64,000 bases of DNA, taken from an uncultured Clostridia bacterium (GTDB lineage: Bacteria; Bacillota; Clostridia; TANB77; CAG-508). The stretch lies in assembly GCA_947625295.1 (NCBI GenBank), contig CANQNU010000001.1, positions 5,919 through 69,918 on the forward strand. The letters run 5' to 3'. A program made the position numbers and the translations under genes. Positions 26,091 to 50,257 of this stretch are shown here, piece by piece (within the stretch, counting starts at the first letter, position 1; the number at the start of each line of letters is the position of its first letter). The notes below the pieces were generated by a model. The model made no database searches and had not been told where the DNA came from. It was given only the letters and a program-made list of their open reading frames with translations.

Positions 26091-26137
26091 ATACAATGTA
26101 TAAAAATGTATGAAAATTTATGAGAGGAAAGCAAAAT

Positions 26138-26929
26138 ATGGAATTTATAAAAACAATATTTACAAATAGAAAATTAGCATTTTCATTAGGAAAAAACGAC
26201 TTTAAAAATAGATTCGCAAATACAAGTTTAGGAAGTATATGGGGATTTTTGCAACCATTTATATTTATGATTACTTATGTAATTGTATTTCAATATATTT
26301 TAAAAACAGGAAGTGCAGGAAATGATCCATATGTCGTATGGTTTTTACCAGGAATGGCAATGTGGCAATGCATAAATGACACAATACTAAATGCAAGTAG
26401 TTCAATTAGAAATTATAGTTATTTAGTAAAAAAAGTAGTATTTCCAGTAGATATCATACCAATTATTTCCATAATAGCCAGTAGTTTTGTAGCATTGTTT
26501 TTATTTGTTGTAGCAATTGTAGTTGGATGTATTTTTCATTATGTGCCAAACTTTTTACAAGTAATTTACATTATTATAGCAGCATATGCATTTATGATAG
26601 CATTTACAAGATTCACATCAGCAGTTACAACTTTAGTACCAGATTTTTCACAATTGCTAGGAATTCTAATGCAATTATTTTTCTGGTTCACGCCAGTTGT
26701 ATGGAATTTGTCAATGCTTGAAAATCATCCAATAATTTTAGCAATAATGAAATGCATTCCATTTAATTATTTAGTATCAGGATTTAGAGATTCATTTATA
26801 TCAAGCAATATTGTAACAGAAAACAATTGGATTTATACAATTGTATTTTGGATAATTACTATTGTAATGTTTATATGGGGAAATTACATTTTTAAAAAGA
26901 GTAAAAAAGATTTTGCGGATGTATTATAA
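26138..26929 (+). CDS. ABC-2 type polysaccharide/teichoic-acid export permease (TagG/Wzm-like)
   Basis: 6 TM segments. N-terminal FKNRFANTSLGSIWGFLQP, typical of ABC-2 exporters. Confidence 0.8.
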   Translation: MEFIKTIFTNRKLAFSLGKNDFKNRFANTSLGSIWGFLQPFIFMITYVIVFQYILKTGSAGNDPYVVWFLPGMAMWQCINDTILNASSSIRNYSYLVKKVVFPVDIIPIISIIASSFVALFLFVVAIVVGCIFHYVPNFLQVIYIIIAAYAFMIAFTRFTSAVTTLVPDFSQLLGILMQLFFWFTPVVWNLSMLENHPIILAIMKCIPFNYLVSGFRDSFISSNIVTENNWIYTIVFWIITIVMFIWGNYIFKKSKKDFADVL

Positions 26930-26983: not shown

Positions 26984-27976
26984 ATGAGTGAAAAGATAGA
27001 TGTATTACTTGCAACCTATAATGGAGAAAAATATTTAAAAGAACAAATTGATAGTATATTAAATCAAACATATCAAAATATTAATTTAATCATTTCAGAT
27101 GATTATTCAACAGATGGAACAAGAGAAATCTTAAAAGGATATGAGCAAAAAGATGAAAGAATAAAAGTATATTACCAAGAAAAAAATCAAGGATATATTA
27201 AAAATTTTGAATTTCTCTTAAAACAAGTAACATCTGATATATATATGTTATCAGACCAAGATGATGTATGGCTACCAGAAAAAATAGAAAAATCATATGA
27301 AACATTAAAAAATGAAAATGCAGATTTAGTATTTGGAGACTTAGAAGTAGTAGATGAAAATTTAAATACTATTTATCCATCATTCAATAAATTTATGCTA
27401 TTAGATAGAAAAATTAAGAAATACATCAATACATACAAATTAAATTATTTATATAATTGTATAACTGGTTGTACTATAATGTCAAAGAAAAAGTTTATAG
27501 AAAAAGTCCTACCATTTCCATCAACAACAAAATACATGCTACATGATTATTGGTTAGGAATTATTGTATCAATAGAAGGCAAATTAGCTTACATACCTGA
27601 AAAATATATAAAGTATAGACAACATGGAAATAATCAAATTGGAACAGACAAAATATCACATAAATTTAATAAATTTGAACAAGTAAGAAATTTATTTATT
27701 GATGTTAAATTAGGAGTTTTTGGAGCTTATTTAGATAATAATAAAAAATTTCCTAAAGAATTACAAAAATTAAACAATGATGCATATGAATATTTTAAAA
27801 CATTATCACAAAAAAAATATTTTAATTTTAGAGGTTGGAAAACATTCCATAAACTATATAAAACAGAAACACTTATATATTATATAGAAAACTTTTTGAT
27901 TATGAATATACCATTAATTGGAAAAATATTATTCAAAATAAAATATGTAATATTAAAAATAATGGGGAAAAGATAA
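26984..27976 (+). CDS. Glycosyltransferase family 2
   Basis: IDVLLATYNGEKYLKEQIDSILNQTY...IISDDYSTDGT. Confidence 0.8.
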   Translation: MSEKIDVLLATYNGEKYLKEQIDSILNQTYQNINLIISDDYSTDGTREILKGYEQKDERIKVYYQEKNQGYIKNFEFLLKQVTSDIYMLSDQDDVWLPEKIEKSYETLKNENADLVFGDLEVVDENLNTIYPSFNKFMLLDRKIKKYINTYKLNYLYNCITGCTIMSKKKFIEKVLPFPSTTKYMLHDYWLGIIVSIEGKLAYIPEKYIKYRQHGNNQIGTDKISHKFNKFEQVRNLFIDVKLGVFGAYLDNNKKFPKELQKLNNDAYEYFKTLSQKKYFNFRGWKTFHKLYKTETLIYYIENFLIMNIPLIGKILFKIKYVILKIMGKR

Positions 27977-27978
27977 AG

Positions 27979-28881
27979 ATGGAAGCTAAAAATAAAATAT
28001 TAATAAAGAAAATAGTATTTATACTAATATGTTTAGTTATTATAAGTATAATAATAAATTTAAATTGCAATGTTGTAAATGCAGAATTAATACAATTAAA
28101 AGATAATTCACCAAGGCAAATGATGGGATATATATTAAAAACAAAAGGAAACGAAGTAATTGTAATTGATGGAGGATTAAAGGAAGATGAACCTAATCTT
28201 TTAGAACATATTAAAAAATTAGGAGGAAAAGTTGATGCATGGTTTTTAACGCATCCACATATGGACCATGTTCAAGCTTTTATGGAAATAGTATATAATA
28301 CTGATATTAAAATAGAAAACATATATGTTACATTAAATGATTTAAATTGGTATCAAAAATACGCAGGAGAAAGGCTATTAGAAGTAGAAGAATTTTTTAA
28401 GATATTGCAAAATGAAAAAATAAAAGAAAAGATTAAATATGTAGAACAAAATGAAAATATTAATATTGATAATATAAAATGTGAAATATTAGGAGTTTGT
28501 AATCCAGAAATAACAGTTAACGCAGTAAATAATTCCAGTATGGTTATAAAAATGAATATAAATAAAACAAGTATTGTGTTTTTAGGGGATACAGGAGCAG
28601 AAAGTGGAAAAAAATTATTAGAAACACAAAAAGATAAATTAAAAGCAGATATTGTACAAGTTGCACATCATGGACAAAATGGTGTGGAAAAAGAAGTTTA
28701 TGAAGCAATACAAGCTAAAATCTGTTTATGGCCAACACCACAATGGCTATGGGATAATGATTCGGGAAATGGTTATAACACAGGGATTTGGAAGACAATA
28801 GAAACAAGAAAATGGATGGATGAGTTAGGAGTAAAAGAACATTATATTGAAAAAAATGGAGACACTACTTTAACATTATAA
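27979..28881 (+). CDS. Membrane-anchored MBL-fold metallo-hydrolase
   Basis: N-terminal TM anchor. WFLTHPHMDHVQAF (HxHxDH), VAHHGQNG. Confidence 0.7.
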   Translation: MEAKNKILIKKIVFILICLVIISIIINLNCNVVNAELIQLKDNSPRQMMGYILKTKGNEVIVIDGGLKEDEPNLLEHIKKLGGKVDAWFLTHPHMDHVQAFMEIVYNTDIKIENIYVTLNDLNWYQKYAGERLLEVEEFFKILQNEKIKEKIKYVEQNENINIDNIKCEILGVCNPEITVNAVNNSSMVIKMNINKTSIVFLGDTGAESGKKLLETQKDKLKADIVQVAHHGQNGVEKEVYEAIQAKICLWPTPQWLWDNDSGNGYNTGIWKTIETRKWMDELGVKEHYIEKNGDTTLTL

Positions 28882-28953: not shown

Positions 28954-30267
28954 GTGAAAGATAATGAAGAACAAGAAGAATACGTAATTGAGATAGACAA
29001 TTTAGGTAAAGACTATAAAATGTTTGACAAAAAAATGGATAGATTAGTAGAAACAATAATTCCAATTGCAAAGAGACATCATACTTTTAAAGCAATGGAA
29101 GACTTTAATTTAAAAGTAAAAAAAGGTGAAGTTTTAGGAATTCTCGGAAAAAATGGAGCAGGTAAATCAACATTACTAAAAATGATAACAGGCGTTGTAA
29201 CACCAACAAATGGAAGTATAAAAGTAAACGGAAAAATCAGCTCATTATTAGAATTAGGAACAGCATTTAATATGGAATTAACAGGAATAGAGAATATTTA
29301 TCAACATGGACAAGTAATGGGACTTACCAATGAGCAAATAGAAGAAGTAAAACAAGATATAATAGATTTTGCAGATATAGGAGAACATCTATATCAACCA
29401 GTAAAAACGTATTCTTCTGGAATGTTTGCAAGACTTGCATTTGCATGTGCTATAAATGTAAACCCAGATATTTTAATAGTAGATGAAGTACTATCTGTAG
29501 GAGATATTGCCTTCCAATTAAAATGCTTTAAGAAGTTTGAGCAATTCAAAGAAAAAGGAAAAACTATTCTTTTTGTTACACATAATGTTACAGATATAAT
29601 AAGAAATTGTACAAGAGCAATAATTATAGATGAAGGAAAGAAAATATTTGACGGACAAGTTAAAGAGGCAGTAGAAAGATATAAGAAAATAATAGTAAAA
29701 TTAGATAAAAAAGAAGAAAAGAATTTAGAAGAAATTATCCAAAAAGAAGATGAAGTAGAAAAAATAAAAGAAGTAAAAGAAAATACTAATTGGAAAGATT
29801 ATCTAGAAGTAAATCCAAATTTAATACAATATGGAAACGAAAGTGCAGAAATAATAGATTTTGGAATTTTTGACGAAGAAGGAAATATAATAACTTCAAT
29901 TGAAAACGATAAAGAAGTAATATTAAAATCAAAAGTGAAGTTCAACAAAGACGTAAATGATCCTATTTTTACAATGACAGTAAAAGATTTCAAAGGATTA
30001 GATATAACTGGAACAAATACTGTTCAACAAAAAATAGCAACAGGAAAATTTAAAAAAGGTGATACAGCAATAGCAGAGTTTAAACAAAAATTAAGTTTAG
30101 CTCCAAATAAATACACACTATCTTTCAGTTGTACAAAATTTAATGCAAATGGAGAGTTAGAAGTTTTAGATAGAAAATATGATGCTTTATTAGTAGAAAT
30201 AACTTCAACCAAAGACTGCGTAGGACTATTTAGATTAGATTCTGATATAACTATATCTAAAATATAA
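28954..30267 (+). CDS. ABC transporter ATP-binding protein, TagH/Wzt-like, with C-terminal carbohydrate-binding (Wzt_C-like) domain. GTG start
   Basis: GILGKNGAGKSTLLKMI (Walker A), YSSGMFARLAFA signature, DEVLSVGD. About 190-aa C-terminal beta-rich extension. Confidence 0.85.
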   Translation: MKDNEEQEEYVIEIDNLGKDYKMFDKKMDRLVETIIPIAKRHHTFKAMEDFNLKVKKGEVLGILGKNGAGKSTLLKMITGVVTPTNGSIKVNGKISSLLELGTAFNMELTGIENIYQHGQVMGLTNEQIEEVKQDIIDFADIGEHLYQPVKTYSSGMFARLAFACAINVNPDILIVDEVLSVGDIAFQLKCFKKFEQFKEKGKTILFVTHNVTDIIRNCTRAIIIDEGKKIFDGQVKEAVERYKKIIVKLDKKEEKNLEEIIQKEDEVEKIKEVKENTNWKDYLEVNPNLIQYGNESAEIIDFGIFDEEGNIITSIENDKEVILKSKVKFNKDVNDPIFTMTVKDFKGLDITGTNTVQQKIATGKFKKGDTAIAEFKQKLSLAPNKYTLSFSCTKFNANGELEVLDRKYDALLVEITSTKDCVGLFRLDSDITISKI

Positions 30268-30286
30268 AGTATGGAGGAGTATATAA

Positions 30287-31747
30287 ATGATATTAAATAT
30301 GTTTGAAGCAAATATAATAAAGTGGTATCCATTTAAAGAGGATAAAGCAATACTTCAAATAGGAATCAATGAATCAATCACGAAAGAATTAAAGAAAATA
30401 TGCAAAAAAATTGATGTTATTTCAAAACCTGAAGAAATAGGAAATAATACAAAATATTATTATGTACTTATATATGGTTGTGAAAATTATGAAAATATAA
30501 TTGAAAAAGCTAAAAAAGTTTTAGATGAAGAAGGAAGCTTATTATTAGTAGGAAACAATGATTTAGGAATAAATAATTGGAGCAAATATAGCGGTATTGA
30601 TGAATTAGAAAATCATACTAAGAAAATCAATACAATATTCAAGATAAAAGAAGAACTAGAAAACAATTTTTTAGAAGAAACAAATACTTTTTATGTATTT
30701 CCTAATTATAAATTGCCAGAAATAATAATAAATAAAAATTTAAAAATAGAAAAAAGTTATTTAGAAAAATATTGTCCAACAATAGAAGAAAACGACATAA
30801 AAATATTTGATGAATCAAAGGTATTAAAAAACATAGTATCAAATAATCCTGAAATGATGGAATTTTTTGCAAATTCATACTTTATAGAAGCATCAAAAAA
30901 ACAAATAGAAACAAATATAAAATTAGTGTCTTATAATAATTGTAGAAATTCAGAATATAGGTTAATAACAATTATATCAGATGATATTGTAAAAAAAATC
31001 CCAGCTGAGCCAGAAGCACAAAAACAAATAGATAATATGAAAAATATTATAAACGATATAAAACAATATTCAATAGATATATTAGATTATGAAAAAGATG
31101 GCTTAATATATAGTAAACTTATAAAAAATGCTAAAACTCTAGATCAAATATTAGGAGAAAATTATAATAATTTAGATTATGTAGTAAAAATATTAAATGA
31201 TATAAAGGAAAAATTATTAAATTGTGAAGTATATGAAGAAAACAATTTACATATTATGAAAAAAGCATTTTGGGATATGGTTCCAAAAAACTGTTTCTAT
31301 ATAGATAACAAATATATATTTTTTGACCAAGAATGGGAAACAGAAAATTTACCTGTTGAATTTATAATATATCGTTCAATAACAAATTCTTATGATTTAG
31401 TAAGAAAGATAAATGTTGATGAATTATTAGAAAAGTTAGGAATTTTACAATATAAAAAAGATTTTGAAAAAATAGATGCTGAATTAAGAAAACCAATAAT
31501 AAATGAAGATTTATATCAAGAAATATATTGTAAAGAAATAAAAGCAATAGATAATTTAATAAATGATAAAAGAATAGCAGAAGAAGTAATAAAACAGGTA
31601 CAAGAAGATAATAATAAAAAACAAGAATATATAATAGCACTTGAAACAGACAATTTGAAAAAACAAGAATATATAAAAGCTCTTGAAGAAAAAAACGAGC
31701 AATATGAAAAAAAACTAGAAAGAAAAAGATTTTTTGGGAAGGAATAA
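30287..31747 (+). CDS. Hypothetical protein. Degenerate methyltransferase-like N-terminal region plus C-terminal coiled coil. Candidate chain terminator or length regulator
   Basis: 486-aa ORF. C-terminal heptad repeats KKQEYIIALETDNLKKQEYIKALEEKNEQYEKKLE. No confident family match. Confidence 0.4.
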   Translation: MILNMFEANIIKWYPFKEDKAILQIGINESITKELKKICKKIDVISKPEEIGNNTKYYYVLIYGCENYENIIEKAKKVLDEEGSLLLVGNNDLGINNWSKYSGIDELENHTKKINTIFKIKEELENNFLEETNTFYVFPNYKLPEIIINKNLKIEKSYLEKYCPTIEENDIKIFDESKVLKNIVSNNPEMMEFFANSYFIEASKKQIETNIKLVSYNNCRNSEYRLITIISDDIVKKIPAEPEAQKQIDNMKNIINDIKQYSIDILDYEKDGLIYSKLIKNAKTLDQILGENYNNLDYVVKILNDIKEKLLNCEVYEENNLHIMKKAFWDMVPKNCFYIDNKYIFFDQEWETENLPVEFIIYRSITNSYDLVRKINVDELLEKLGILQYKKDFEKIDAELRKPIINEDLYQEIYCKEIKAIDNLINDKRIAEEVIKQVQEDNNKKQEYIIALETDNLKKQEYIKALEEKNEQYEKKLERKRFFGKE

Positions 31748-31749
31748 AA

Positions 31750-33429
31750 ATGTTTATAGATAAAATTTTTATACGAGGATCAAAAGCAAGAGAAATATTA
31801 AAAAAAATATATATAAAATATAGTAAAGAAGAAAGAACATATAAAAAGTGGATAATACAAAATGAACCAAATAAAAAAGGACAAAAAGAACAAAAAAAGA
31901 CAAAATTTAAAATACAACCTAAAATTAGTATAGTTGTACCATTATATAATACACCTAAAAAATTTTTGAATGAATTAATAGAAAGCTTAAAAAAACAAAC
32001 ATATTCAAACTGGGAATTATGTTTAGCTGATGGAAGCCCAGAGCCTATAAAATTTATTAATAAATATTTAGGGGATAAAAGAATTGTATATAAAATAATT
32101 GGTGAAAATAAAGGAATTTCTGGAAATACAAATGAAGCAATTAAACTAGCAACAGGCGATTATATTGGATTACTTGATCATGACGATTTATTACCACCAT
32201 TCTCATTATATGAAATAGTAAAAACAATAAATGAAAATCCAAAAGTAGAATTTTTATACTCAGATGAAGATAAATTAGAAATTGCCAATGGTCCAAGATA
32301 TGGAGTATTTTTTAAACCAGACTTTTCTCCATACACATTAAATAGTGCAAATTATATATGTCATTTTAGTATATTTAAAAAAGAATTGATGGACAAACTA
32401 GGTGGTTTAAAAAGTGAGTATGATGGAAGTCAAGATTGGGATATTGTAGCAAGAGCAGTAGAAAATACCGATAAGATTGAACATATAGCCAAAGTATTAT
32501 ATCATTGGAGAGTACATCAAAATTCAACTGCTGGAAATTCTGATTCTAAACCATATGCTTTTGAAATAGGGAAGAAAGTAATAAAAGATCATGTAAAAAG
32601 AACTCTAAATACAGATGTTGAAGTTACTGATGGATTAACTCCTGGAAGTTATAAAATAAAGTATAAAGTAAAAGATAATCCAATGGTTAGTATAATAATT
32701 GACGCTGAAGATTTAGAAGATGAAAAAATACAAGAACTAATACAAAAAGTAAAAATTACCACATATACAAATTATGAAATACTTGTAATTACAAATAAAG
32801 ATATAGAAAATGTTGATAAAATAATAAAGCCACAAAGTAATATATTTGAAGCCTATAATCAAGCAGTAAATGAAATAGAAGGCAAATATTTTATAATTGT
32901 AGATAAAAATCTAATTAAAATAGATAGCAAATCATATATAGAAGATTTACTAGGTATCTGCCAAGATGAAAATGTTGGAATAGTAGGAACAAAATTATAT
33001 AACAAAAAAGATGAAGTAGAACATAATGGAATAATTATAGGAATGAATGGAATAGGAGATTTCTTATATAAAGGTGTTCAAAAAGATGTTGGAACATATA
33101 TGCAAAGACTTTCAATTATACACAATGTATCATGTGTATATGTAAAATATGCAATGATAGATAAAGAAATATTCATGCAAATTAATAAATTCACAGATGA
33201 ATTTACAGGTTTAGGTGTAAGCATAGATACATGTATGAAAATTTTAGAACTTGGAAAACAAGTTGTAATAAATCCTATTATTTCAATATGTGTAGAAAAG
33301 CTATCACAAATAGATAAAGTAGATGAAGATAAGATACAAGATAAATGGAAAAAACAATATGAAAAAGGAGACATTTATTTTAGTCCAAATTTAGATAAAA
33401 CTAATACAGGGATATCAATAAAGTCTTAG
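31750..33429 (+). CDS. Two-module GT-A glycosyltransferase (GT2 N-terminal domain plus a second degenerate GT2-like domain)
   Basis: ISIVVPLYNTPKKFLNELIESLKKQTY...GLLDHDD in the first module. A second GT2-like block starts MVSIIIDAED. Confidence 0.7.
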   Translation: MFIDKIFIRGSKAREILKKIYIKYSKEERTYKKWIIQNEPNKKGQKEQKKTKFKIQPKISIVVPLYNTPKKFLNELIESLKKQTYSNWELCLADGSPEPIKFINKYLGDKRIVYKIIGENKGISGNTNEAIKLATGDYIGLLDHDDLLPPFSLYEIVKTINENPKVEFLYSDEDKLEIANGPRYGVFFKPDFSPYTLNSANYICHFSIFKKELMDKLGGLKSEYDGSQDWDIVARAVENTDKIEHIAKVLYHWRVHQNSTAGNSDSKPYAFEIGKKVIKDHVKRTLNTDVEVTDGLTPGSYKIKYKVKDNPMVSIIIDAEDLEDEKIQELIQKVKITTYTNYEILVITNKDIENVDKIIKPQSNIFEAYNQAVNEIEGKYFIIVDKNLIKIDSKSYIEDLLGICQDENVGIVGTKLYNKKDEVEHNGIIIGMNGIGDFLYKGVQKDVGTYMQRLSIIHNVSCVYVKYAMIDKEIFMQINKFTDEFTGLGVSIDTCMKILELGKQVVINPIISICVEKLSQIDKVDEDKIQDKWKKQYEKGDIYFSPNLDKTNTGISIKS

Positions 33430-33480
33430 AATATAAATTTTATTTAGATTACAAAAAATAGGATTGAAATGAGGAAAAAT

Positions 33481-35709
33481 ATGAAAGAAGTAGATATTAT
33501 AGTACCAATATATAATGCATATGAATATACAGAAGAATGCATAAAAAGTATTATAAAAAATACTGATTTAAATATAAACACATTAGTATTAATAAATGAT
33601 AAAAGCCCAGATGAAAAAATATTACCAATGCTAAAAAAATATCAAAAAGATAATGAAGGAGCAAATATAGTAGTATTAGACAATGAACAAAATATGGGTT
33701 TTGTTAAAACTGTAAATAAAGGTATGCAATATTCTGAAAATGATGTAATTTTACTAAATAGTGATACAGAAGTCACAAAAAAATGGATAGAAAAAATTCA
33801 AGTATGTGCATATTCAAATGAATATATAGCAACAGTAACACCTCTTACTAATAATGGAACAATATGTTCTGTTCCTAATTTCGGAATAGATAATGAACTT
33901 CCACAAAATATGACATTAGAAGAATATGCAGAAATGATAGAAAAAACTTCAAAAAATAGATATCCTGAGCTTACAACTGGTAATGGATTTTGTATGTATA
34001 TAAAAAGAAAAGTAATAAATGAATTAGGACTATTTGATGAAGAAACTTTTGGTAAAGGATATGGAGAAGAAAATGATTTCTGTTATAGAGCCTTAGATAA
34101 TGGATATATAAATGTTTTATGCGATAATACATTTATATATCATAAGGGAACGCAAAGCTTTAAAAAAGAAAATATGACTGCATCAAGAGCAGCACTAATA
34201 GATGAACATATGAATCTATTAAGAAAAAAGCATCCAATATATGTACAAAAAACAGATAATTTTATTGCAAATAATCCTTTACGCGATATTCAAGAAAACG
34301 TAAATTTAAATATATTATTATATAACAAGAAAAAGATATTATATTTGGTAAATGAATGGGAAGAAAATATGGAAATGACAGGAGGAACATCATTACATAT
34401 AAAAGATATTATCCAATCAAATAATAAAAACAACATAGCAAGTTTTGTATTAGCACCATATAAAGAAGATTTATCAAAATTTAAACTATATTTATACACA
34501 GACAAATATGCAAAAGAAATAGCAAACTATAAAACAGATATTAATTGTTATGGACAAATAATATATACAAATAATTCATACAAAGAAATGTTAGAAAATT
34601 TATTTGATAGCTTTAATTTTGATATATTACATGTACATCACTTTTTATTCCAAACATTTGATGCAATAGATATAGCAAAACAAAAAAATGTATATTCAAT
34701 AATAACTCTACATGACTTATATATGAAATGTCCATCAATAAATATGGTATATAGAGATAAATACTGTGAGTATGATGAAAATAAAGATTGTTCAAAGTGC
34801 TTAAATTCAAGATATGGTGTCAATAGCGATATATTATCAAATTGGCAAGAAACTTGTAAAAATGTTCTAAAAAAATTTGATAAAATAATTGTTCCATCTG
34901 AAAATACAAAAAAGATATTTGAAAATATTTATAAAGATATAGAAATTGAAGTTGTAGAACATGGTGTAGAAATTATAACAACTAATAAAAAACAGAAAAA
35001 GACTGATAAAGAAACTTTTGATGTTGCTTTTGTTGGTGCTATGGCTATTCATAAAGGAAGTAATATCTTAAAAGAATTAATAAAAGAAAACAAGAATTCA
35101 AATATAAAAATACATTTATTTGGAAAAGCTAATGACAAAGAATTAAGTAAAAATAAGACAAATTATATAAACCATGGATCATATAAACGAGGAGAATTAC
35201 CACAGTTACTTATAAATAATGATATAGATTTAATATGTATATTTGCAACTTGGCCAGAAACATATTCATATACATTAACAGAATGTTACATGGCACAAAT
35301 TCCAATACTTACATTCAATATAGGAGCTGTAGGAGATAGAGTTAAAGAAGATAAACTAGGATGGATATTAGATTTTCCAAGTGATTCAAACAAAATATTA
35401 GAAAAAATCAGTGAAATCAAAGAAAACAAAGAAGAATACAAAAATATTGTAGAAAAATTTAAAGAATATAACTTTAAAAATTTAAAGGAAATGCAAGATT
35501 ATTATTTAAAATTATACAACAACATTCATAATGAATATAAAATTTCTGATATATACAATTTTATGAATTATAGAAATAAAGCAAAAGAATTGGAATTTAA
35601 TATATATCAATCACAATATGGACATGTTGTTCATAAATATGAAAAAATGAGAAGTAGTAAGCTATGGAAAATAGCAAAAAAAGTGAAATCTAAATTAAAA
35701 GGAAATTAA
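33481..35709 (+). CDS. Bifunctional glycosyltransferase (N-terminal GT2, C-terminal GT4/GT-B), polymerase-like
   Basis: VDIIVPIYNAYEYTEECIKSI...LINDKSPD (GT2). C-terminal FVGAMAIHKGSNILKEL...ETYSYTLTECYMAQIPIL (GT-B). Confidence 0.7.
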   Translation: MKEVDIIVPIYNAYEYTEECIKSIIKNTDLNINTLVLINDKSPDEKILPMLKKYQKDNEGANIVVLDNEQNMGFVKTVNKGMQYSENDVILLNSDTEVTKKWIEKIQVCAYSNEYIATVTPLTNNGTICSVPNFGIDNELPQNMTLEEYAEMIEKTSKNRYPELTTGNGFCMYIKRKVINELGLFDEETFGKGYGEENDFCYRALDNGYINVLCDNTFIYHKGTQSFKKENMTASRAALIDEHMNLLRKKHPIYVQKTDNFIANNPLRDIQENVNLNILLYNKKKILYLVNEWEENMEMTGGTSLHIKDIIQSNNKNNIASFVLAPYKEDLSKFKLYLYTDKYAKEIANYKTDINCYGQIIYTNNSYKEMLENLFDSFNFDILHVHHFLFQTFDAIDIAKQKNVYSIITLHDLYMKCPSINMVYRDKYCEYDENKDCSKCLNSRYGVNSDILSNWQETCKNVLKKFDKIIVPSENTKKIFENIYKDIEIEVVEHGVEIITTNKKQKKTDKETFDVAFVGAMAIHKGSNILKELIKENKNSNIKIHLFGKANDKELSKNKTNYINHGSYKRGELPQLLINNDIDLICIFATWPETYSYTLTECYMAQIPILTFNIGAVGDRVKEDKLGWILDFPSDSNKILEKISEIKENKEEYKNIVEKFKEYNFKNLKEMQDYYLKLYNNIHNEYKISDIYNFMNYRNKAKELEFNIYQSQYGHVVHKYEKMRSSKLWKIAKKVKSKLKGN

Positions 35710-35712
35710 AAT

Positions 35713-37257
35713 ATGACTGAATTATTAAAGAAAATAGAAAAAAAATTAAGTAAAGTAAGATATTTAACAGAAGCTATTTTTGTAATTATATGTCTATTCT
35801 TTTTAGTACAGTTAATATGTACTAAAAAATATAATGGATATTTTCATAAATTATATTTATTAGGTACAATGATTTATTTAAGTATATCTGTAATAAACAT
35901 AATTTATAATTTTATAAAAGATAAGCATCATATCGAAAGATTATTTATAAATATTGCAATACCAATAGGATTATGCTTTGCTATATTTATGATACCAGGA
36001 CATGTACCAGATGAAAATACACATTTTTATAAAGCGTATGATATATCATGTGGAAACTTAATAACAAAAATAGATGCTAATGGAGAATCGTTTATTACAG
36101 TACCAAAAGATTTGGTAAATTATAATAAAGCATTGAATAATTACTATAGTTTAAGAGAGTTAGCTTCAACACAAACAAATTACAAAGATACCCAAAAAGT
36201 TATATCAACAGCACAAGGAAATAGCTTTATCACATATATATTTTCTGCGATAGCATTTTTTATAGTAAGAATTTTAAATATACCTATTTTTTATGGAATT
36301 ATATTAGGAAGATTATTTAATTTAAGTTTTTATATTTTTATGCTTTATTTAGCAATTAAAAAAATACCTTTTGGAAAAAAAGTATTAGCAATATATGCTT
36401 TAATGCCAATGTGTATACAACAAGCTAGTTCTTTTTCACCAGATGCTGTTATAAATGCTATTTTATTATACTATATAGCTCATTCAATATACTTAATTTT
36501 TAAAAAGGAAAAAATATCAATTAGAGAATTGCTTATTTATATCATTCTTACACCTATTATAGGTATTATTAAAATGGTATATATACTAATTGCAGGAGTT
36601 GGATTCTTAATTATAAAAAGAAAGGATATTGCTAAAAAAACTAAAGTAGCAATAATAGCAATTACTATTTTATTAGGTTCAACAGCATTATTTGGAATGC
36701 TTATATTATCGCCAAAATATGAAATGGTACCAGAATCTACTAAAGAATACATGAAAAATATGAATGTAGATTCTTCTAAACAGATACAAACTATGATAAG
36801 TAGTCCAAAACATGTTATAAAGGCATTTATATATGATTATTACAATATGGGAAATTATTATATAAACTCAGCAATTGGAAGTGAATTAGGTTGGTTAGAA
36901 ATAAATCCAGCACAAATTGTAATAACAGCTTATTTAATTTTATTATTAGCTTCAATATTATTTGAAGAACATAAATATCAATTTAATTTAAAAAACGCAT
37001 TATGGATTATATTAATAGTTTTAGGAGTTATGACTTTAACACAAATCGCTTTATATGTAGGATTTACACCTATTGGAGCAGAATTTATTGGAGGAATACA
37101 AGGTAGATATTATATACCAACTTATATATTATTGTTATTATGTTTATGTAGAAAAAAATATAATTTATGTACAACAAATTCAGAAATTAAACTAATATGT
37201 ATCTCTAGTATTTTAAATATATTAATTATTTTTGAAATGATGAAATATTTTATATAG
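35713..37257 (+). CDS. Polytopic membrane protein, DUF2142/GtrC-like (putative extracytoplasmic glycosyltransferase)
   Basis: About 12 TM segments. PGHVPDENTHFYKAYDIS motif near the N-terminus. Immediately upstream of a GtrB-like GT2 and DUF2304. Confidence 0.5.
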   Translation: MTELLKKIEKKLSKVRYLTEAIFVIICLFFLVQLICTKKYNGYFHKLYLLGTMIYLSISVINIIYNFIKDKHHIERLFINIAIPIGLCFAIFMIPGHVPDENTHFYKAYDISCGNLITKIDANGESFITVPKDLVNYNKALNNYYSLRELASTQTNYKDTQKVISTAQGNSFITYIFSAIAFFIVRILNIPIFYGIILGRLFNLSFYIFMLYLAIKKIPFGKKVLAIYALMPMCIQQASSFSPDAVINAILLYYIAHSIYLIFKKEKISIRELLIYIILTPIIGIIKMVYILIAGVGFLIIKRKDIAKKTKVAIIAITILLGSTALFGMLILSPKYEMVPESTKEYMKNMNVDSSKQIQTMISSPKHVIKAFIYDYYNMGNYYINSAIGSELGWLEINPAQIVITAYLILLLASILFEEHKYQFNLKNALWIILIVLGVMTLTQIALYVGFTPIGAEFIGGIQGRYYIPTYILLLLCLCRKKYNLCTTNSEIKLICISSILNILIIFEMMKYFI

Positions 37258-37269
37258 GAAAGGAAAAAA

Positions 37270-37962
37270 ATGAAAACTTTAATAATAATACCAGCATATA
37301 ACGAAGAATTAAATATAGAAAAAACAATAAAAGACTTAAAAGATAATACAAATTATGACTATTTAATTATTAATGATTGTTCAAAAGATAAAACAAAGGA
37401 AGTATGTAAGAAAAACAAATTTAATATTTTATCATTACCAATTAACTATGGTTTAACAAGTGGAATACAAGTTGGTATGAAATATGCATACAAAAACAAT
37501 TATGACATTGTTATCCAATTTGATGGCGATGGACAACATCAAGCAACTTATTTAAAAGACTTAGTAAAAGAAATAGAAAATGGAAATTGTAATATTGCAA
37601 TTGGATCAAGATTTGTAAATAAAAAGAAACCAAAAAATATGAGAATGTTTGGAAGCATATTATTAACATTAGCAATTAAGATTACAACAGGTCAAAAAAT
37701 AAAAGATCCAACATCAGGAATGCGAGCATATGACAAAAAAGCAATTGAATATTTTATAAAAAATCCAAGTTTAACACCAGAACCAGACACATTAGTTTAT
37801 ATGTTAAAGAAAAAAATGAAGATAAAAGAAGTACAAGTAGAAATGAGAGAAAGAGAATATGGAGAAAGCTACTTAAAACCATTAAAATCTGCAGAATACA
37901 TGATAAACATGTTTTTCTCAATTATATTTATACGAGCTATGACAAGGAAAGATAAAAAATAA
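37270..37962 (+). CDS. GT2 polyprenyl-phosphate glycosyltransferase (GtrB/DPM1-like, short form)
   Basis: LIIIPAYNEELNIEKTI...IINDCSKDKT, DGDGQH, C-terminal TM segment. Confidence 0.75.
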   Translation: MKTLIIIPAYNEELNIEKTIKDLKDNTNYDYLIINDCSKDKTKEVCKKNKFNILSLPINYGLTSGIQVGMKYAYKNNYDIVIQFDGDGQHQATYLKDLVKEIENGNCNIAIGSRFVNKKKPKNMRMFGSILLTLAIKITTGQKIKDPTSGMRAYDKKAIEYFIKNPSLTPEPDTLVYMLKKKMKIKEVQVEMREREYGESYLKPLKSAEYMINMFFSIIFIRAMTRKDKK

Positions 37963-37981
37963 AAAAAGGAGGAATATATAA

Positions 37982-38317
37982 ATGACAATTACACTAAGAG
38001 TTATATTAATAATATGTTCTTTAATTTCATTTATATTATGTATTACAAGAATAAAACAATCAAAATTAAAAATAGAAAATTCAGTCATATGGATGATAGG
38101 AAGTATTTTATTAATAATCATGAGTATCTTTGCAAATGCAGTAGAATGGATAGCAAATAAACTAGGATTCATGGCTCCAGTAAATTTTGTATTTTTAGTA
38201 ATAATAGGATTTTTACTAATACAAGCATTTATAGACAACATGAGAATATCAACACTAAATGAAAAAATAAAAGATTTAAACCATTACATTGCTTTAAAAG
38301 AAAAAGAGAGGGAATAG
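37982..38317 (+). CDS. DUF2304-family small membrane protein
   Basis: 111 aa, 3 TM segments, C-terminal coiled segment. Typical partner of GtrB-like GT2 genes. Confidence 0.5.
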   Translation: MTITLRVILIICSLISFILCITRIKQSKLKIENSVIWMIGSILLIIMSIFANAVEWIANKLGFMAPVNFVFLVIIGFLLIQAFIDNMRISTLNEKIKDLNHYIALKEKERE

Positions 38318-46664: not shown

Positions 46665-47531
46665 ATGAAAATACTAATTACAGGAGCAAACGGAATGCTT
46701 GCAAAATCTGTAAGAAAAAGATTAGAAAAAAATGAATTAATTTGTACTGATGTAGAAGATTTAGATATAACAGATGAAAATGCTGTATTAAAATTTGTAG
46801 AAGAAAAACAACCAGAATATATAATTAACTGTGCTGCATATACAGCAGTTGATAAAGCAGAAGAAGCAGGAGAAATTGTAGAAAAAATCAATGCAATTGG
46901 ACCAGAAAATTTGGCAAAAGCTGCAAAAAGTATAGATATTCCACTAATACATATTAGTACAGATTATGTATTTGGAGGAAATTTAGATATTGAAAAAGTA
47001 TACAAAGAAGAAGATGCAAAAGCACCTGTAACAGCATATGGAATTACAAAATTACACGGAGAAGAAAAAATAAAAGAAAATACTGATAAATATTATATAT
47101 TTAGAACAGCATGGTTATATGGAGACGGAAATAACTTTGTAAGAACAATGCTTAAACTAGGAGAGCAAAAAGACGAAATTAGTGTAGTATGTGATCAACA
47201 TGGATCTCCTACATATGCAGAGGATTTAGCAAATATAATAGGAGAAGCGATTGAAAAGAAAATACCATATGGTATATATCATGCAACAAATCAAGGATAT
47301 ACAACATGGTATGATTTTACAAAGGCAATATTTGAATATGCAGGTATAATATGCAAAGTAAATCCAGTTACAACAGAAGAATACATTGAAATGATGAAAG
47401 TTACTCAAGCCAAAAGACCAAAAAATTCTCAATTATCAAAAGAAAAATTATTAGCACAAGGTATTACAGTACCTGATTGGGAAGATGCTTTAAAAAGATA
47501 TTTGCAAGAAGAAGGCAAAATTGAAAAATAA
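46665..47531 (+). CDS. rfbD: dTDP-4-dehydrorhamnose reductase
   Basis: MKILITGANGMLA. 288 aa. Confidence 0.85.
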   Translation: MKILITGANGMLAKSVRKRLEKNELICTDVEDLDITDENAVLKFVEEKQPEYIINCAAYTAVDKAEEAGEIVEKINAIGPENLAKAAKSIDIPLIHISTDYVFGGNLDIEKVYKEEDAKAPVTAYGITKLHGEEKIKENTDKYYIFRTAWLYGDGNNFVRTMLKLGEQKDEISVVCDQHGSPTYAEDLANIIGEAIEKKIPYGIYHATNQGYTTWYDFTKAIFEYAGIICKVNPVTTEEYIEMMKVTQAKRPKNSQLSKEKLLAQGITVPDWEDALKRYLQEEGKIEK

Positions 47532-47560
47532 TTTTTAAAACTAAAACGCAGTAAGAAAGG

Positions 47561-48475
47561 ATGAGAAAAATGAAAAACAGAAAGGGAATTATATTAGCTG
47601 GAGGAAGTGGAACAAGACTATATCCATTAACAATTGCAATATCAAAACAAATAATGCCAGTATATGACAAACCAATGATTTATTATCCATTATCAGTTCT
47701 AATGGAAGCAAACATTAGAGAAGTATTAATAATTTCAACTCCAAGAGATATTACAATTTTTAAAGAGTTATTAGGAGATGGAGCCCAATGGGGAATGCAC
47801 TTTGAATACAAAGTGCAAGAAAAACCTAATGGATTAGCAGAAGCATTTATTATAGGAGAAGAATTCATAGGAGAAGATAATGTTGCTATGATATTAGGAG
47901 ATAATATGTTTTATGGATCACACTTACCAGAAATTCTAAAAAGAGCAAATGCAAGAGAAAACGAATCAACAATTTTTGGATACTATGTAAAAGATCCAAG
48001 AGCATATGGAGTTGTAGAAATAGATAAAGACGGAAAAGCAATATCAATTGAAGAAAAACCAGAAAAACCAAAATCAAATTATGCAGTACCAGGACTATAT
48101 TTCTATACTAATGACGTTATAGAAATTGCAAAAAATGTAAAACCATCAGCAAGAGGCGAACTAGAAATAACATCAGTAAATGACGAATACATGAAAAAAG
48201 GAAAACTAAAAGTAGAAAAAATAGGAAGAGGAATGACATGGTTTGACACAGGAACACATGATGCATTATTAGAAACAGCAAGCTTTGTACAAACAATAGA
48301 AAAAAGACAAGGAATGCAAGTAAGTTGTCCAGAAGAAATAGCATATAAAAATGGATGGATAACAGTAGAAAAATTATCAGAACTAGCAGACAAATACATG
48401 AAAACAGAATACGGACAATATTTAAAAGATTTAGCTACAATGTCAATAGAGACGGATTTTTTTGACAACGAATAA
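47561..48475 (+). CDS. rfbA: Glucose-1-phosphate thymidylyltransferase
   Basis: [16 protein letters not shown]. Confidence 0.9.
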
Positions 48476-48512
48476 TGTCAATAGGGACGGGCCTTTTTGA
48501 CAACGAATAAAA
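48441..48512 (+). repeat. Tandem ~36-nt duplication. The last 11 codons of rfbA are repeated, in diverged form, after the stop
   Basis: atgtcaatagagacggatttttttgacaacgaataa / tgtcaatagggacgggcctttttgacaacgaataa. Confidence 0.8.
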
Positions 48513-48590
48513 ATTATTAAATGATAGATAATAAATTTGTTCAAGAATTCGTCTAAATTATAAACAAATTCTAAAATTAACAAAGAAGGA

Positions 48591-49178
48591 GTGAAAAAAT
48601 TGGGAAAGTTTAAAAAAATAGAGACTTCAATTGACGGAGTATATGTAATTGAACCATCTGTATTTGGAGATAATAGAGGATATTTTATGGAGACATATAG
48701 TAAAGCTGAATTTGAAGAGATTGGTTTAAATTATAATTTTGTACAAGATAATCAATCTAAATCTAGCAGAGGAGTTTTAAGAGGATTACATTTTCAAAAA
48801 GAAAACACACAAGCAAAATTAGTTAGATGTATAAAAGGAGAAGTATTTGATGTTGCAGTAGACTTAAGACCAGGAAGTAAGACATATGGAAAATGGGAAG
48901 GTGTAATTTTATCTGAAGAAAATAAAAAAATGTTTATGATACCTAGAGGATTTGCACATGGATTTTTAGTATTATCAGATGAAGCAGAATTCACTTATAA
49001 ATGTGATGATATATATAATCATGAAGCAGAAGGAGGACTTGCATGGAATGATCCAGATGTAGGTATAGATTGGCCTTTAGGAGATATTAAAGTAGCAGAC
49101 TTACTAACATCTGAAAAAGATGCAAAATGGCCATCACTAAAAGAATTAAAAGAAACAGATTTATTTAAGGGATTATAG
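48591..49178 (+). CDS. rfbC: dTDP-4-dehydrorhamnose 3,5-epimerase (GTG start 48591 or TTG 48600)
   Basis: GVYVIEPSVFGDNRGYFMETY, RGLHFQ. Confidence 0.85.
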   Translation: MKKLGKFKKIETSIDGVYVIEPSVFGDNRGYFMETYSKAEFEEIGLNYNFVQDNQSKSSRGVLRGLHFQKENTQAKLVRCIKGEVFDVAVDLRPGSKTYGKWEGVILSEENKKMFMIPRGFAHGFLVLSDEAEFTYKCDDIYNHEAEGGLAWNDPDVGIDWPLGDIKVADLLTSEKDAKWPSLKELKETDLFKGL

Positions 49179-49288
49179 AAGACATTTCTTAAAATCTATC
49201 TTAAAAAGGAAAAAGGGATTTCATTCTTAATGAAAAAAGACAAAGGTTTGTCCCTAAATTCCTAAAGGAAAAGAAAGGAAAAAGAAGA

Positions 49289-50257
49289 ATGAGTAAAAAT
49301 GTATTAGTAACAGGAGCAGCAGGTTTCATAGGAGCAAATTTTGCAGAGTATTTTGTAAATAAGCACCCAGATTATAAGGTAATAGTAGTAGATAAATTAA
49401 CATATGCAGGAAATTTGGACAATCTAAAAAAAGTACAAGATAAGATAACTTTTGTGCAAGCAGATATATGTGATTTTGAAAAAATGAAAGAAATTTTTGA
49501 TAAATATGATATTAATGGAGTAATTCATTTTGCAGCAGAATCACATGTTGATAATAGTATTAAAAATCCATTTGTATTTACACAAACAAATGTAATTGGA
49601 ACACATACATTACTTGAAACTGCAAAACAAAAATGGGGAGAAGGTAGTCCTAATAAATTTGTACATATTTCTACTGATGAAGTGTATGGTTCATTAGGGG
49701 AAGACGGATATTTTACAGAAACATCACCTATAAAACCAAGTAGTCCATATTCATCATCAAAAGCAAGTTCAGATTTAATTGCACTTGCATATAAAGAAAC
49801 ATATAAAATGAATATTAATGTAACAAATTGTTCAAACAATTATGGTCCATATCAACATAATGAAAAATTAATTCCACATATGATTAAATTAGCTCTAAAT
49901 AACGAAAAATTGCCTGTATATGGAACAGGAAAAAATATTAGAGATTGGTTATATGTAGAAGATCATTGTGAAGCAATAGATTTAGTATTTCATAAGGGAG
50001 TATCTGGAGAAAGATACAATATAGGTGGACACAATGAAAAAAGAAATATAGAAATTGTAAAATTAATTTTACAAAGATTAGGAAAATCAGAAGATTTAAT
50101 AGAATATGTAGAAGATAGAAAAGGACATGACTATAGATATGCAATTGATCCAACAAAAATTAAAAATGAACTTGGTTGGTATCCAAAAACAAAATTCGAG
50201 GATGGAATTGTAAAAACAATCGATTGGTATTTAGAAAACCCTGATTGGTTAAAGTAA
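49289..50257 (+). CDS. rfbB: dTDP-glucose 4,6-dehydratase
   Basis: VLVTGAAGFIGANF, YSSSKASSD. Confidence 0.9.
   Translation: MSKNVLVTGAAGFIGANFAEYFVNKHPDYKVIVVDKLTYAGNLDNLKKVQDKITFVQADICDFEKMKEIFDKYDINGVIHFAAESHVDNSIKNPFVFTQTNVIGTHTLLETAKQKWGEGSPNKFVHISTDEVYGSLGEDGYFTETSPIKPSSPYSSSKASSDLIALAYKETYKMNINVTNCSNNYGPYQHNEKLIPHMIKLALNNEKLPVYGTGKNIRDWLYVEDHCEAIDLVFHKGVSGERYNIGGHNEKRNIEIVKLILQRLGKSEDLIEYVEDRKGHDYRYAIDPTKIKNELGWYPKTKFEDGIVKTIDWYLENPDWLK

Follow-up and report, generated by a model that had tools for sequence, protein, structure and literature searches.

A putative kinase-type chain terminator encoded beside a carbohydrate-binding Wzt ATPase in an uncultured Clostridia bacterium

How the length of ABC-exported wall polysaccharides is set in Gram-positive bacteria is poorly understood; in the case of the rhamnans of lactococci and streptococci, the only proposal is capping by a glycosyltransferase, RgpE, as yet untested (PMC9574508). 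This question is raised by a locus in a 64,000-nt stretch of DNA (the window) from an uncultured gut Clostridia bacterium, where a gene for an exporter ATPase (28954-30267) is followed by a gene for a 486-aa protein (30287-31747). Both ORFs lie on the + strand exactly where the original prediction, made from the sequence of the window, had placed them. That prediction suggested that the pair consists of a Wzt ATPase with a carbohydrate-binding domain (CBD) and a coiled-coil terminator of the WbdD kind. According to our analysis the 486-aa protein most likely ends elongation by placing a phosphate on the final sugar of the chain. We assign a probability of about 0.72 to the reading that it terminates the chains of a rhamnose-containing cell-wall polysaccharide made by an ABC-transporter-dependent pathway, and that it acts by the mechanism proposed below.

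The exporter and its neighbourhood

The Wzt ATPase has 437 aa and a GTG start. Its nucleotide-binding domain (aa 1-270; 28954..29763, + strand) is recognized by Pfam ABC_tran (aa 49-179, E=8e-23) and by the TagH/Wzt models of NCBIfam, and the best PDB match of the protein is A. aeolicus Wzt (8dku/7k2t, E=1.9e-71). The C-terminal CBD (aa 292-428; 29827..30237, +) matches Pfam Wzt_C (PF14524) with E=3.9e-34 and 118 bits versus a cut-off of 30.4. When the extension past the nucleotide-binding domain was searched alone, the closest solved relative was 2R5O, the C-domain of E. coli O9a Wzt (E=1.2e-10), and a match to the CBD of A. aeolicus Wzt (7K2T/8DKU/6O14, E=5.8e-5) was observed as well. These matches identify the extension as a genuine Wzt_C carbohydrate-binding domain, as had been predicted; the length is a different matter, since a charged linker and a domain of ~137 aa make an extension of ~177 aa and not the ~190 aa first given. 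The domain resembles the E. coli O9a and A. aeolicus CBDs in sequence, with low identity, so that ligand specificity is not transferable from them. The permease partner Wzm is encoded at 26120..26929 (+; Pfam ABC2_membrane, E=1.3e-14) and has a homologue in 67 of 84 related loci. With a Wzt carrying the Wzt_C domain and a Wzm permease, the locus has the features of CBD-dependent Wzm/Wzt export.

Downstream, a dual GT2 glycosyltransferase gene (31750..33429, +; Pfam GT2, E=1e-28) begins 2 nt past the stop codon of the 486-aa ORF. Its product, the probable polymerase partner, is 39% identical (E=2e-28) to the GT2 module 766-1140 of K. pneumoniae O7 ORF6, a rhamnosyltransferase module, and homologues are present in 81 of the 84 loci. 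A conserved neighbour with GT2 and GT4 domains by Pfam (33469..35709, +) has homologues in 50 of 84. The genes rmlD, rmlA, rmlC and rmlB for dTDP-L-rhamnose synthesis (46665..50257, +) were identified by the Pfam models RmlD_sub_bind (E=2.6e-95), NTP_transferase (E=1.7e-74), dTDP_sugar_isom (E=4e-76) and GDP_Man_Dehyd/Epimerase. Neither an initiating transferase nor an LCP ligase was found among the larger window ORFs scanned.

Upstream of Wzt, an accessory gene of the cassette (27979..28881, +; homologues in 47 of 84 loci) encodes an MBL-fold hydrolase with the HxHxDH motif 'HPHMDH' and a hydrophobic segment at the N-terminus, read as a signal or anchor, and the protein is predicted to be secreted or membrane-anchored. 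It matches Pfam Lactamase_B (E=1.4e-10) and the ComEC/Rec2 MBL region of NCBIfam (E=2.9e-11); no PDB sequence relative was found at E<=0.01.

Domain structure of the 486-aa protein

The 486-aa protein has no Pfam or NCBIfam match at E<0.01, a phmmer search against the PDB gave one chance match (isoprenyl transferase, E=0.28), and its homologues are either unnamed or labelled 'hypothetical protein'. In the AF2 model (pLDDT 90.8, pTM 0.82) three parts can be confidently distinguished: a methyltransferase-like domain, a protein-kinase-like domain and a heptad helix of ~63 residues. The first and the third had been anticipated in the original prediction; the kinase-like domain had been missed. Structure prediction followed by a Foldseek search, which had been proposed as the check on this product, returned both methyltransferase and kinase folds.

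The N-terminal part (aa 1-165; 30287..30781, +) appears to be a vestigial class-I methyltransferase-like domain. It is well folded in the model (pLDDT >90), all its top Foldseek matches are SAM methyltransferases (E about 1e-5), and a profile search matched 3cc8 (E=5.9e-5). When aligned with relatives that have an intact domain and with K. pneumoniae O7 ORF6, it shows the degenerate character that had been predicted: motif I reads 'GINES' instead of 'GAGCG', and the GxGxG of this motif, the acidic end of beta2 and ~26 aa over alphaB-beta3 are missing. There is no Pfam methyltransferase match at E<0.01 in this domain, while relatives at 25-35% identity match Methyltransf_23/11/12/25 and have an intact domain. 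A relaxed Pfam scan of 43 family members produced only weak or isolated methyltransferase matches; a PrmA match in one of them (P0099) was set aside, since its contig is 2 kb long and an adjacent gene seems to have been joined to the ORF. The scanned locus ORFs of at least 200 aa (plus a 111-aa DUF2304 ORF) contained no further methyltransferase. Judging from these alignments, the methyltransferase domain of the window clade has lost its SAM-binding elements. Residues N9, W13, Y14, D58, G83 and N91 are kept; the invariance of N9 and N91 suggests that the domain retains some function.

The middle part (aa ~166-420; 30782..31546, +) is modelled as a protein-kinase-like domain. Since the Foldseek results for the full-length model were dominated by the methyltransferase domain, with the kinase fold visible as a single Bud32 match, the kinase domain (aa 165-425) was modelled apart (pLDDT 85.9). 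Foldseek then gave the choline kinase LicA (4r7b, E=9e-5) as the top match, along with Rio2, capreomycin phosphotransferase (Cph), PRPK/Bud32 and APH(3'), at probability 1.0 with modest TM-scores (0.35-0.48) and large rmsd. The presumed catalytic K237 (30995-30997, +), the presumed catalytic loop D330-N335 (31274-31291, +; D330 and N335) and the presumed metal-binding D347-W350 'DQEW' (31325-31336, +; D347, Q348, E349 and W350) show no variation in alignments A1 and A3, even at 24% identity, and the motif 'FFDQEW' resembles the 'IDxE' of ChoK/APH.

In the AF2 model the C-terminal part (aa 421-483, followed by the tail and stop codon; 31547..31747, +) forms one long helix, whose heptad register runs without a break and has 61% hydrophobic a/d positions versus 35% overall, in line with the heptad coiled coil that had been predicted. 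It carries conserved 'DNxKKQEYIxxLE' repeats and ends in a basic-aromatic tail, 'RKRFFGKE'. Repeat number and tail differ between homologues; Y462, I463, L466 and E467 are invariant or nearly so. At ~63 aa the coil is short, ~9 nm when fully extended. Its use as a length ruler, suggested by the architecture, is a tentative proposal on which we would not bet, as a short coil with a conserved motif fits a docking element equally well.

The conserved motif and tail of the coil, together with the decay of one catalytic domain already, could also be accommodated by a non-catalytic scaffold or pseudokinase that only tethers the polymerase to the membrane or transporter. The strict conservation of K237, D330, N335 and D347 would be unexpected for a pseudokinase, and we regard this explanation as very improbable.

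Distribution, synteny and gene fusions

One search yielded 218 homologues of the 486-aa protein, and an exhaustive HMMER scan for the family gave 2,080 cluster representatives (clusters at 50% identity), which marks the ORF as a real gene. The family occurs in 98 species-representative genomes, and the 80 that were listed are uncultured Clostridia-class MAGs (Clostridia, Clostridium, Clostridiaceae, Eubacteriales and Lachnospiraceae). A second, word-indexed homologue search with the broad profile brought in no named or cultured relatives.

The gene order of the locus is kept among relatives at 40-51% identity. Across the 84 loci (from at least 80 species-level genomes) a homologue of the Wzt CBD is located within 6 kb of the family member in 78; the six others are mostly on contigs that break off. 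In L059 and in several representatives of 1,150-1,230 aa the family is fused in frame to GT2-GT2, and the fused relatives have the order terminator module, coil, and then GT2-GT2, WbsX or RgpF modules. An N-terminal extension of ~370 aa in some relatives (P0004, P0292) had no Pfam match even at E<=1.

The LicA match at the top of the Foldseek list and the ChoK/APH-like 'FFDQEW' motif raise the alternative of a kinase that terminates nothing, phosphorylating either internal residues of the polymer as a decoration or, like LicA, a small molecule (choline or a different headgroup precursor) for subsequent attachment to the wall polymer. Against it, the locus ORFs scanned include no cytidylyltransferase or LicD-like transferase, the profile homology is to a proven terminator (the N-terminal region of O7 ORF6), the family is fused via a coiled coil to polymerase glycosyltransferases, and it is nearly always accompanied by a CBD-bearing Wzt, a type of ATPase that depends on a terminal signal. 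We consider this role highly unlikely.

Proposed mechanism

The terminator reading is derived from the folds, the invariant presumed catalytic residues, the homology to O7 ORF6-N, the synteny with CBD-bearing Wzt, the polymerase fusions and the presence of rmlABCD in the locus. The folds, homology, synteny and fusions likewise support the earlier proposal of a WbdD-kind coiled-coil terminator beside a CBD-bearing Wzt. [quoted passage not shown] The terminator would oligomerise through its C-terminal coiled coil and probably dock at the membrane or at the polymerase via the KQEYIxxLE motif and the basic-aromatic tail. Its kinase-like domain would transfer phosphate from ATP to a hydroxyl of the sugar at the non-reducing end and thereby block extension. 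The C-terminal CBD of Wzt would recognise the capped end, and only then would Wzm/Wzt export the polymer. Coupling of the terminator to export is, in our estimate, likely.

As for the nature of the cap, the window clade would most likely use a bare phosphate, in place of the methyl-phosphate of WbdD and K. pneumoniae O7 ORF6; the loss of the SAM-binding elements makes a bare phosphate the likelier of the two. Given a terminator, we lean slightly towards a phosphate-only cap. Changed cap chemistry would be expected to leave a trace in the class of the Wzt CBD. The observed CBD class does not track the intact versus reduced state of the methyltransferase domain (p=0.78), and this independence gives no support to the phosphate-only idea.

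The same sharing of CBD classes between loci with reduced and intact methyltransferases is what one would see if the protein were bifunctional like WbdD and O7 ORF6, its reduced N-domain still binding SAM and methylating the phosphate to give a methyl-phosphate cap. The good folding of this domain and the six conserved residues that it keeps are compatible with such activity, and 2R5O, the solved structure nearest to the CBD, belongs to the exporter of methyl-phosphate-capped chains in E. coli O9a (PMC3482155). The absence of a Pfam match where intact relatives have one, and the deletion of the acidic beta2-end residue along with ~26 aa across alphaB-beta3, argue against it. So does motif I, which reads 'GINES' in place of 'GAGCG'; the O7 methyltransferase mutant was built by exchanging glycines of this motif, G91A/G93A (PMC11231755). 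Retained methylation is in our view unlikely.

It is the MBL gene, and not the methyltransferase state, whose presence tracks the class of the Wzt CBD (35/2 versus 15/25, Fisher p=6.6e-8, with phylogeny not corrected for). This hints at an elaboration of the phosphate-only cap: the clade might be a natural 'kinase-only' terminator in which bare phosphate serves as the export ticket and the secreted MBL protein acts as a phosphoesterase that processes or removes the cap outside the cell. We hold this elaboration to be speculative and of low probability; if true, the cap-and-uncap cycle would be undescribed for any ABC-dependent glycan pathway.

With a terminator of this type, a large family of 'hypothetical proteins' would tie ABC-exported wall polysaccharides of Gram-positive bacteria to the terminator-plus-CBD quality control of E. 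coli and Klebsiella. The family offers testable residues (K237, D330 and D347) and also a natural experiment, as its sister clades have intact or decayed methyltransferases and split or fused terminator-polymerase genes; comparing them could reveal how much of the methyl-phosphate cap and of the coiled coil is really required. Annotation of surface-glycan loci in the gut microbiome would improve as well.

Comparison with known terminators

Among characterised proteins, the methyltransferase-kinase terminator at the N-terminus of K. pneumoniae O7 ORF6 is the nearest relative; its function was established by experiment (Kelly et al., JBC 2024; PMC11231755). The terminator-family profile matches it with E=7e-13, the O7 sequence used being rebuilt from a machine-read supplement and limited to aa 1-450. 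Both proteins have the domain order methyltransferase(-like), APH-type kinase and coiled coil, and they have in common the motifs PDYKLP, ANSF/Y and the D-x-V-P-x-N catalytic loop. The window sequence 'AFWDMVPKN' matches 'GFIDAVPQN' around D441, the kinase catalytic residue of O7 ORF6 (PMC11231755), at a comparable spacing from the ANSF motif; taken alone, this loop match is not significant. Both belong to rhamnose-containing, ABC-transporter-dependent glycan pathways with a CBD-bearing Wzt. The differences are several. O7 ORF6 is a fused terminator-polymerase, while in the window the terminator and GT2-GT2 are encoded by separate adjacent genes. Its methyltransferase is active and has the motif I glycines G91/G93, a feature that is missing in the window clade and present in relatives at 25-35% identity. 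The window protein has no additional Ig-like CBM separating kinase and coil, and its coil is short. Finally, orthologues of O7 ORF6 have been reported only from alpha- and gamma-proteobacteria and cyanobacteria (PMC11231755), whereas the window host is a Gram-positive-type Clostridia MAG. From the sequence comparison, the window protein and GT2-GT2 together look like the O7-type terminator-polymerase in a Gram-positive form divided over two genes.

WbdD of E. coli O9a and K. pneumoniae O3 (PDB 4AZS series) also has the order methyltransferase, kinase, C-terminal coiled coil. Its C-terminus is membrane-proximal, and it caps the non-reducing end with phosphate and then methyl, a prerequisite for export by the CBD-bearing Wzt; in O9a phosphorylation alone terminates chains (PMC3482155). 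The WbdD kinase is Src/ePK-like, whereas that of the window resembles APH, ChoK, Rio and Bud32, and in WbdD the coil and C-terminal region occupy aa 460-708, compared with ~63 aa for the window coil. WbdD did not appear among PDB chains searched with profiles A1 and A3 at E<=10, nor among the top 50 Foldseek matches of the full-length and kinase-domain models. With no sequence or fold match found, membership in the WbdD family was rejected; the 486-aa protein is a functional and architectural analogue of WbdD and not a detectable homologue.

WbbB (K. pneumoniae O12 and Raoultella terrigena) combines the terminator, a coiled-coil ruler and polymerase glycosyltransferases in one polypeptide, as the fused relatives do; its terminator is a Kdo transferase and not a kinase, so its cap chemistry differs from that of the window protein. 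The Gram-positive precedent is WsaE of Geobacillus stearothermophilus NRS 2004/3a, where termination of the S-layer poly-L-rhamnan is coupled to Wzt export (PMC2943079). Its terminator domain is joined to two rhamnosyltransferase modules and caps the terminal Rha, and its gene has Wzm/Wzt directly upstream and rmlABCD downstream. Compared by description, WsaE has an active methyltransferase that adds a 2-O-methyl cap, with no kinase described, whereas the window protein combines a kinase-like domain with a vestigial methyltransferase. The original claim of an unrecognised Gram-positive analogue is thus to be narrowed: coupling of termination to export in Gram-positive bacteria was already known from WsaE, and what would be new at this locus is the probable kinase type of terminator.

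Domain organization of the 486-aa protein

The 486-aa ORF (30287–31747, + strand) is a genuine gene whose product has no match in Pfam or NCBIfam. A word-indexed search returned 218 homologues, none with a name other than 'hypothetical protein', and an exhaustive HMMER scan gave 2,080 cluster representatives at E<=1e-3 (402 at E<=1e-30). The AlphaFold2 model, with 43 homologues in the input, is confident (pLDDT 90.8, pTM 0.82). For aa 1–165 the top Foldseek matches in PDB are class-I SAM methyltransferases only; the methyltransferase-like N-terminus of the original prediction is thus borne out, but a kinase domain at aa 166–420 had been overlooked. K237, D330-x4-N335 and F346-D347-Q-E-W350 are invariant in the family alignment; judged from sequence, K237, D330-x4-N335 and D347 would be the beta3 Lys, the catalytic loop and the metal-binding Asp of a protein-kinase-like domain. 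Given this signature, aa 165–425 were modelled separately (pLDDT 85.9), and Foldseek matched the model to kinase-fold proteins only, all with probability 1.0: LicA choline kinase (E=9e-5), Rio2, capreomycin and macrolide phosphotransferases, PRPK/Bud32 and APH(3'). Structure prediction and Foldseek together yield both a methyltransferase and a kinase fold.

The heptad-repeat coiled coil expected at the C-terminus was also found: aa 421–483 form a single long helix in the AlphaFold2 model, with an unbroken heptad register and hydrophobic residues at 61% of a/d positions (35% overall). 'DNxKKQEYIxxLE' repeats within this helix differ in number between homologues, and near-invariance of the KQEYIxxLE motif suggests a docking site. 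The C-terminal tail is basic-aromatic, 'RKRFFGKE' in the window protein and 'KKIFFWKR', 'KKKRFF' and similar in homologues. In distant relatives (25–35% identity) from the broad family alignment A3 the coil ends in a conserved 'NSxSWKITKPLR' followed by basic residues (for example in P0130, P0136, P0140, P0150, P0163 and P0178); the close relatives of the window protein have a 'KKRFFWKR'-type tail in its place. Both tails look like membrane- or partner-docking elements. At a helix rise of 1.5 Å per residue the coil is short (~63 aa, roughly 9 nm), and among homologues the stretch following the FFDQEW motif ranges in length from 108 to 159 aa; a role of the coil as a putative length ruler is conceivable rather than probable. 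The N-terminus of one homologue, P0099 (569 aa), matches PrmA methyltransferase strongly (E=7.8e-52); with a contig of only 2,175 bp, a genuine fusion is less likely than a mis-assembly or the merging of a neighbouring gene.

Wzt and conservation of the gene neighbourhood

Wzt (28954–30267) carries ABC_tran and, at aa 292–428, Wzt_C (Pfam, E=3.9e-34), and two stretches of the complete protein align to full-length A. aeolicus Wzt (E=1.9e-71). The C-terminal 167 aa alone match the Aquifex carbohydrate-binding domain (CBD) and 2R5O (E=1.2e-10), the CBD of E. coli O9a Wzt. The extension thus has a carbohydrate-binding fold, in agreement with the glycan-end-binding domain proposed originally. In loci L003 and L004 (5835–7123) the wzt gene call is split in three, with ABC_tran on two pieces and Wzt_C on a third, which suggests frameshifts or a pseudogene in this lineage.

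With each species represented by a single genome, the scan found the family in 98 genomes; the 80 listed loci all come from uncultured MAGs of Clostridia, Clostridium, Clostridiaceae, Eubacteriales or Lachnospiraceae. Together with four loci fetched earlier, two of them near-duplicates, they make a set of 84. Searched by tblastn with the window proteins, the flanks contain homologues of the Wzt CBD in 78 of the 84 loci, the Wzt nucleotide-binding domain in 76, Wzm in 67 and GT2-GT2 in 81, the loci missing a homologue being mostly truncated contigs. Gene order is kept where the terminator is only 40–51% identical. In one locus (L059) a single 1,139-aa ORF joins the family module (32% identical), a coil and GT2-GT2 (65% identical); other representatives, 1,150–1,490 aa long, have an N-terminal family module followed by GT2-GT2, WbsX+RgpF or RgpF modules.

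The gene at 27979–28881 encodes a metallo-beta-lactamase (MBL)-fold hydrolase with an N-terminal signal/anchor, predicted to be secreted or anchored, with an intact HxHxDH motif and no sequence relative in PDB at E<=0.01. The gene has the GT2 gene and wzt as neighbours in the window; in many relatives it stands between wzt and the terminator gene. Its presence goes along with the Wzt CBD class: the CBD is at least 58% identical to that of the window in 35 loci with the gene and less in 2, versus 15 and 25 loci without it (Fisher p=6.6e-8, for raw counts not corrected for phylogeny, the gene possibly lying outside some flanks). In several close relatives without the MBL gene the terminator has an extra ~370-aa N-terminal region (825–900 aa in total; P0004, P0291, P0292, P0300, P0301, L010 2347–4983 and L012 4882–7530). 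This extension, for which Pfam gives no match at E<=1, sits where the MBL gene stands in other loci.

Other genes of the polysaccharide locus

The window has ~25% G+C, and nearly all its larger ORFs are on the + strand, including every gene of the polysaccharide locus (26120 to ~50257). Genes for the Wzm permease (26120–26929) and a GT2 (26984–27976) precede the MBL gene; the 486-aa ORF is followed by genes for the dual GT2 (31750–33429) and a GT2+GT4 protein (33469–35709). Grouped at 35713–38317 are genes for a DUF2142 membrane protein (E=2.7e-46), a PpgS-like polyprenyl-phosphate sugar synthase GT2 and DUF2304; this group looks like a three-component system for side-chain sugar addition outside the cytoplasm, and some relatives (L001) have two DUF2142 genes. 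Additional GT2 and GT8 genes are also part of the locus. The product of 39431–40681, a multi-pass membrane protein of 416 aa, has a sub-threshold match to Polysacc_synt (Wzx-like flippase; E=0.0013, 18.7 bits, cut-off 28.2), a hint that the locus may include a second branch that depends on Wzx. The gene at 44293–46575, flanked by the glycosyltransferase genes and rmlDACB, encodes a 760-aa lysozyme with a GH25 domain and nine ChW repeats, which may be an autolysin targeted to the wall polysaccharide. A scan of the larger ORFs elsewhere in the window found neither an initiating transferase nor an LCP ligase.

Homology to O7 ORF6 and the predicted chemistry of the cap

Klebsiella pneumoniae O7 ORF6 is composed of a methyltransferase, an AmiN/APH-like kinase unannotated before that study, a coiled coil and two GT2 domains (Kelly et al. 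2024, PMC11231755). It caps the terminal rhamnose with methyl-phosphate, and D441A abolishes kinase activity (PMC11231755). ORF6 aa 1–450 and three orthologues were transcribed from the machine-read supplementary alignment of PMC11231755 and searched with the A3 profile of the Clostridial family (24–59% identity; search space 1.8e9 sequences). These machine-read sequences scored 64.6 bits (E=7e-13) for ORF6, 65.9 bits for the E. coli orthologue and 74.8 bits (E=5.6e-16) for that of Cyanobacterium stanieri. The alignments cover the methyltransferase domain into the kinase N-lobe, with common motifs PDYKLP, ANSF/Y and RKxxY, and the ORF6 catalytic loop 'GFIDAVPQN' (D441) corresponds to 'AFWDMVPKN' (D330) with matching spacing. 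The window GT2-GT2 is 39% identical (E=2e-28) to the ORF6 GT2 module 766–1140, a rhamnosyltransferase. In view of both homologies the window gene pair is a split version of O7 ORF6, with terminator and GT2-GT2 encoded by two adjacent genes rather than in one protein. The 486-aa protein is best classified as a divergent, stand-alone terminator of the type of the ORF6 N-terminal part, with a vestigial methyltransferase domain.

Relatives at 25–35% identity have significant Pfam matches to Methyltransf_23/11/12/25 and keep the 'LEIGxxxGxIT' motif, the acidic residue ending beta2 and the beta3 segment, the same elements as in O7 ORF6 ('LEIGAGCGAIT', 'ALEGS'). About 26 residues across the beta2-end/beta3 region are missing from the window protein and from the three closest relatives that the examined alignment contains. 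Motif I of the window protein reads 'LQIGINESIT', and its N28 aligns to ORF6 G93, one of two glycines mutated in the methyltransferase mutant construct (PMC11231755). Since the domain has decayed and the scanned locus ORFs contain no other methyltransferase, a phosphate-only cap has slightly better than even odds. Against it count the Wzt CBD class, which shows no difference according to whether the locus has a reduced or an intact methyltransferase domain (p=0.78), and N9 and N91, still invariant; the N-domain therefore keeps a function of some kind, which could be acceptor binding or a domain interface.

Comparison with known terminators

In WbdD of E. coli O9a the kinase step alone terminates chains (PMC3482155), and the domain order is that of the 486-aa protein. 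Membership in the WbdD family was rejected: neither family profile found WbdD in PDB at E<=10, and it is missing from the top Foldseek hits. By analogy, the 486-aa protein would work like WbdD from outside its family. The kinase fold, the ORF6 homology, the synteny with Wzt and the fusions support the original reading of a WbdD-like terminator beside a CBD-bearing Wzt.

In Geobacillus stearothermophilus, WsaE caps the S-layer poly-rhamnan with a 2-O-methyl group; wsaE directly follows wzm/wzt, with rmlABCD downstream (PMC2943079). In lactic acid bacteria, the one proposal for rhamnose wall polysaccharides is a putative capping glycosyltransferase (PMC9574508). Given WsaE, Gram-positives already offer a case of termination coupled to Wzt export. 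No terminator of the kinase type was found described for Firmicutes in the literature searched, which excluded the survey of Mann et al. 2019, reportedly a bioinformatic one of terminators. The claim of an unrecognised Gram-positive analogue thus fails for Wzt-coupled termination as such, but stands for a WbdD analogue of the kinase type within that literature. WbbB and O7 ORF6 have their terminator, coil and polymerase in one polypeptide, in the order that recurs in the Rosetta-stone fusions of the family.
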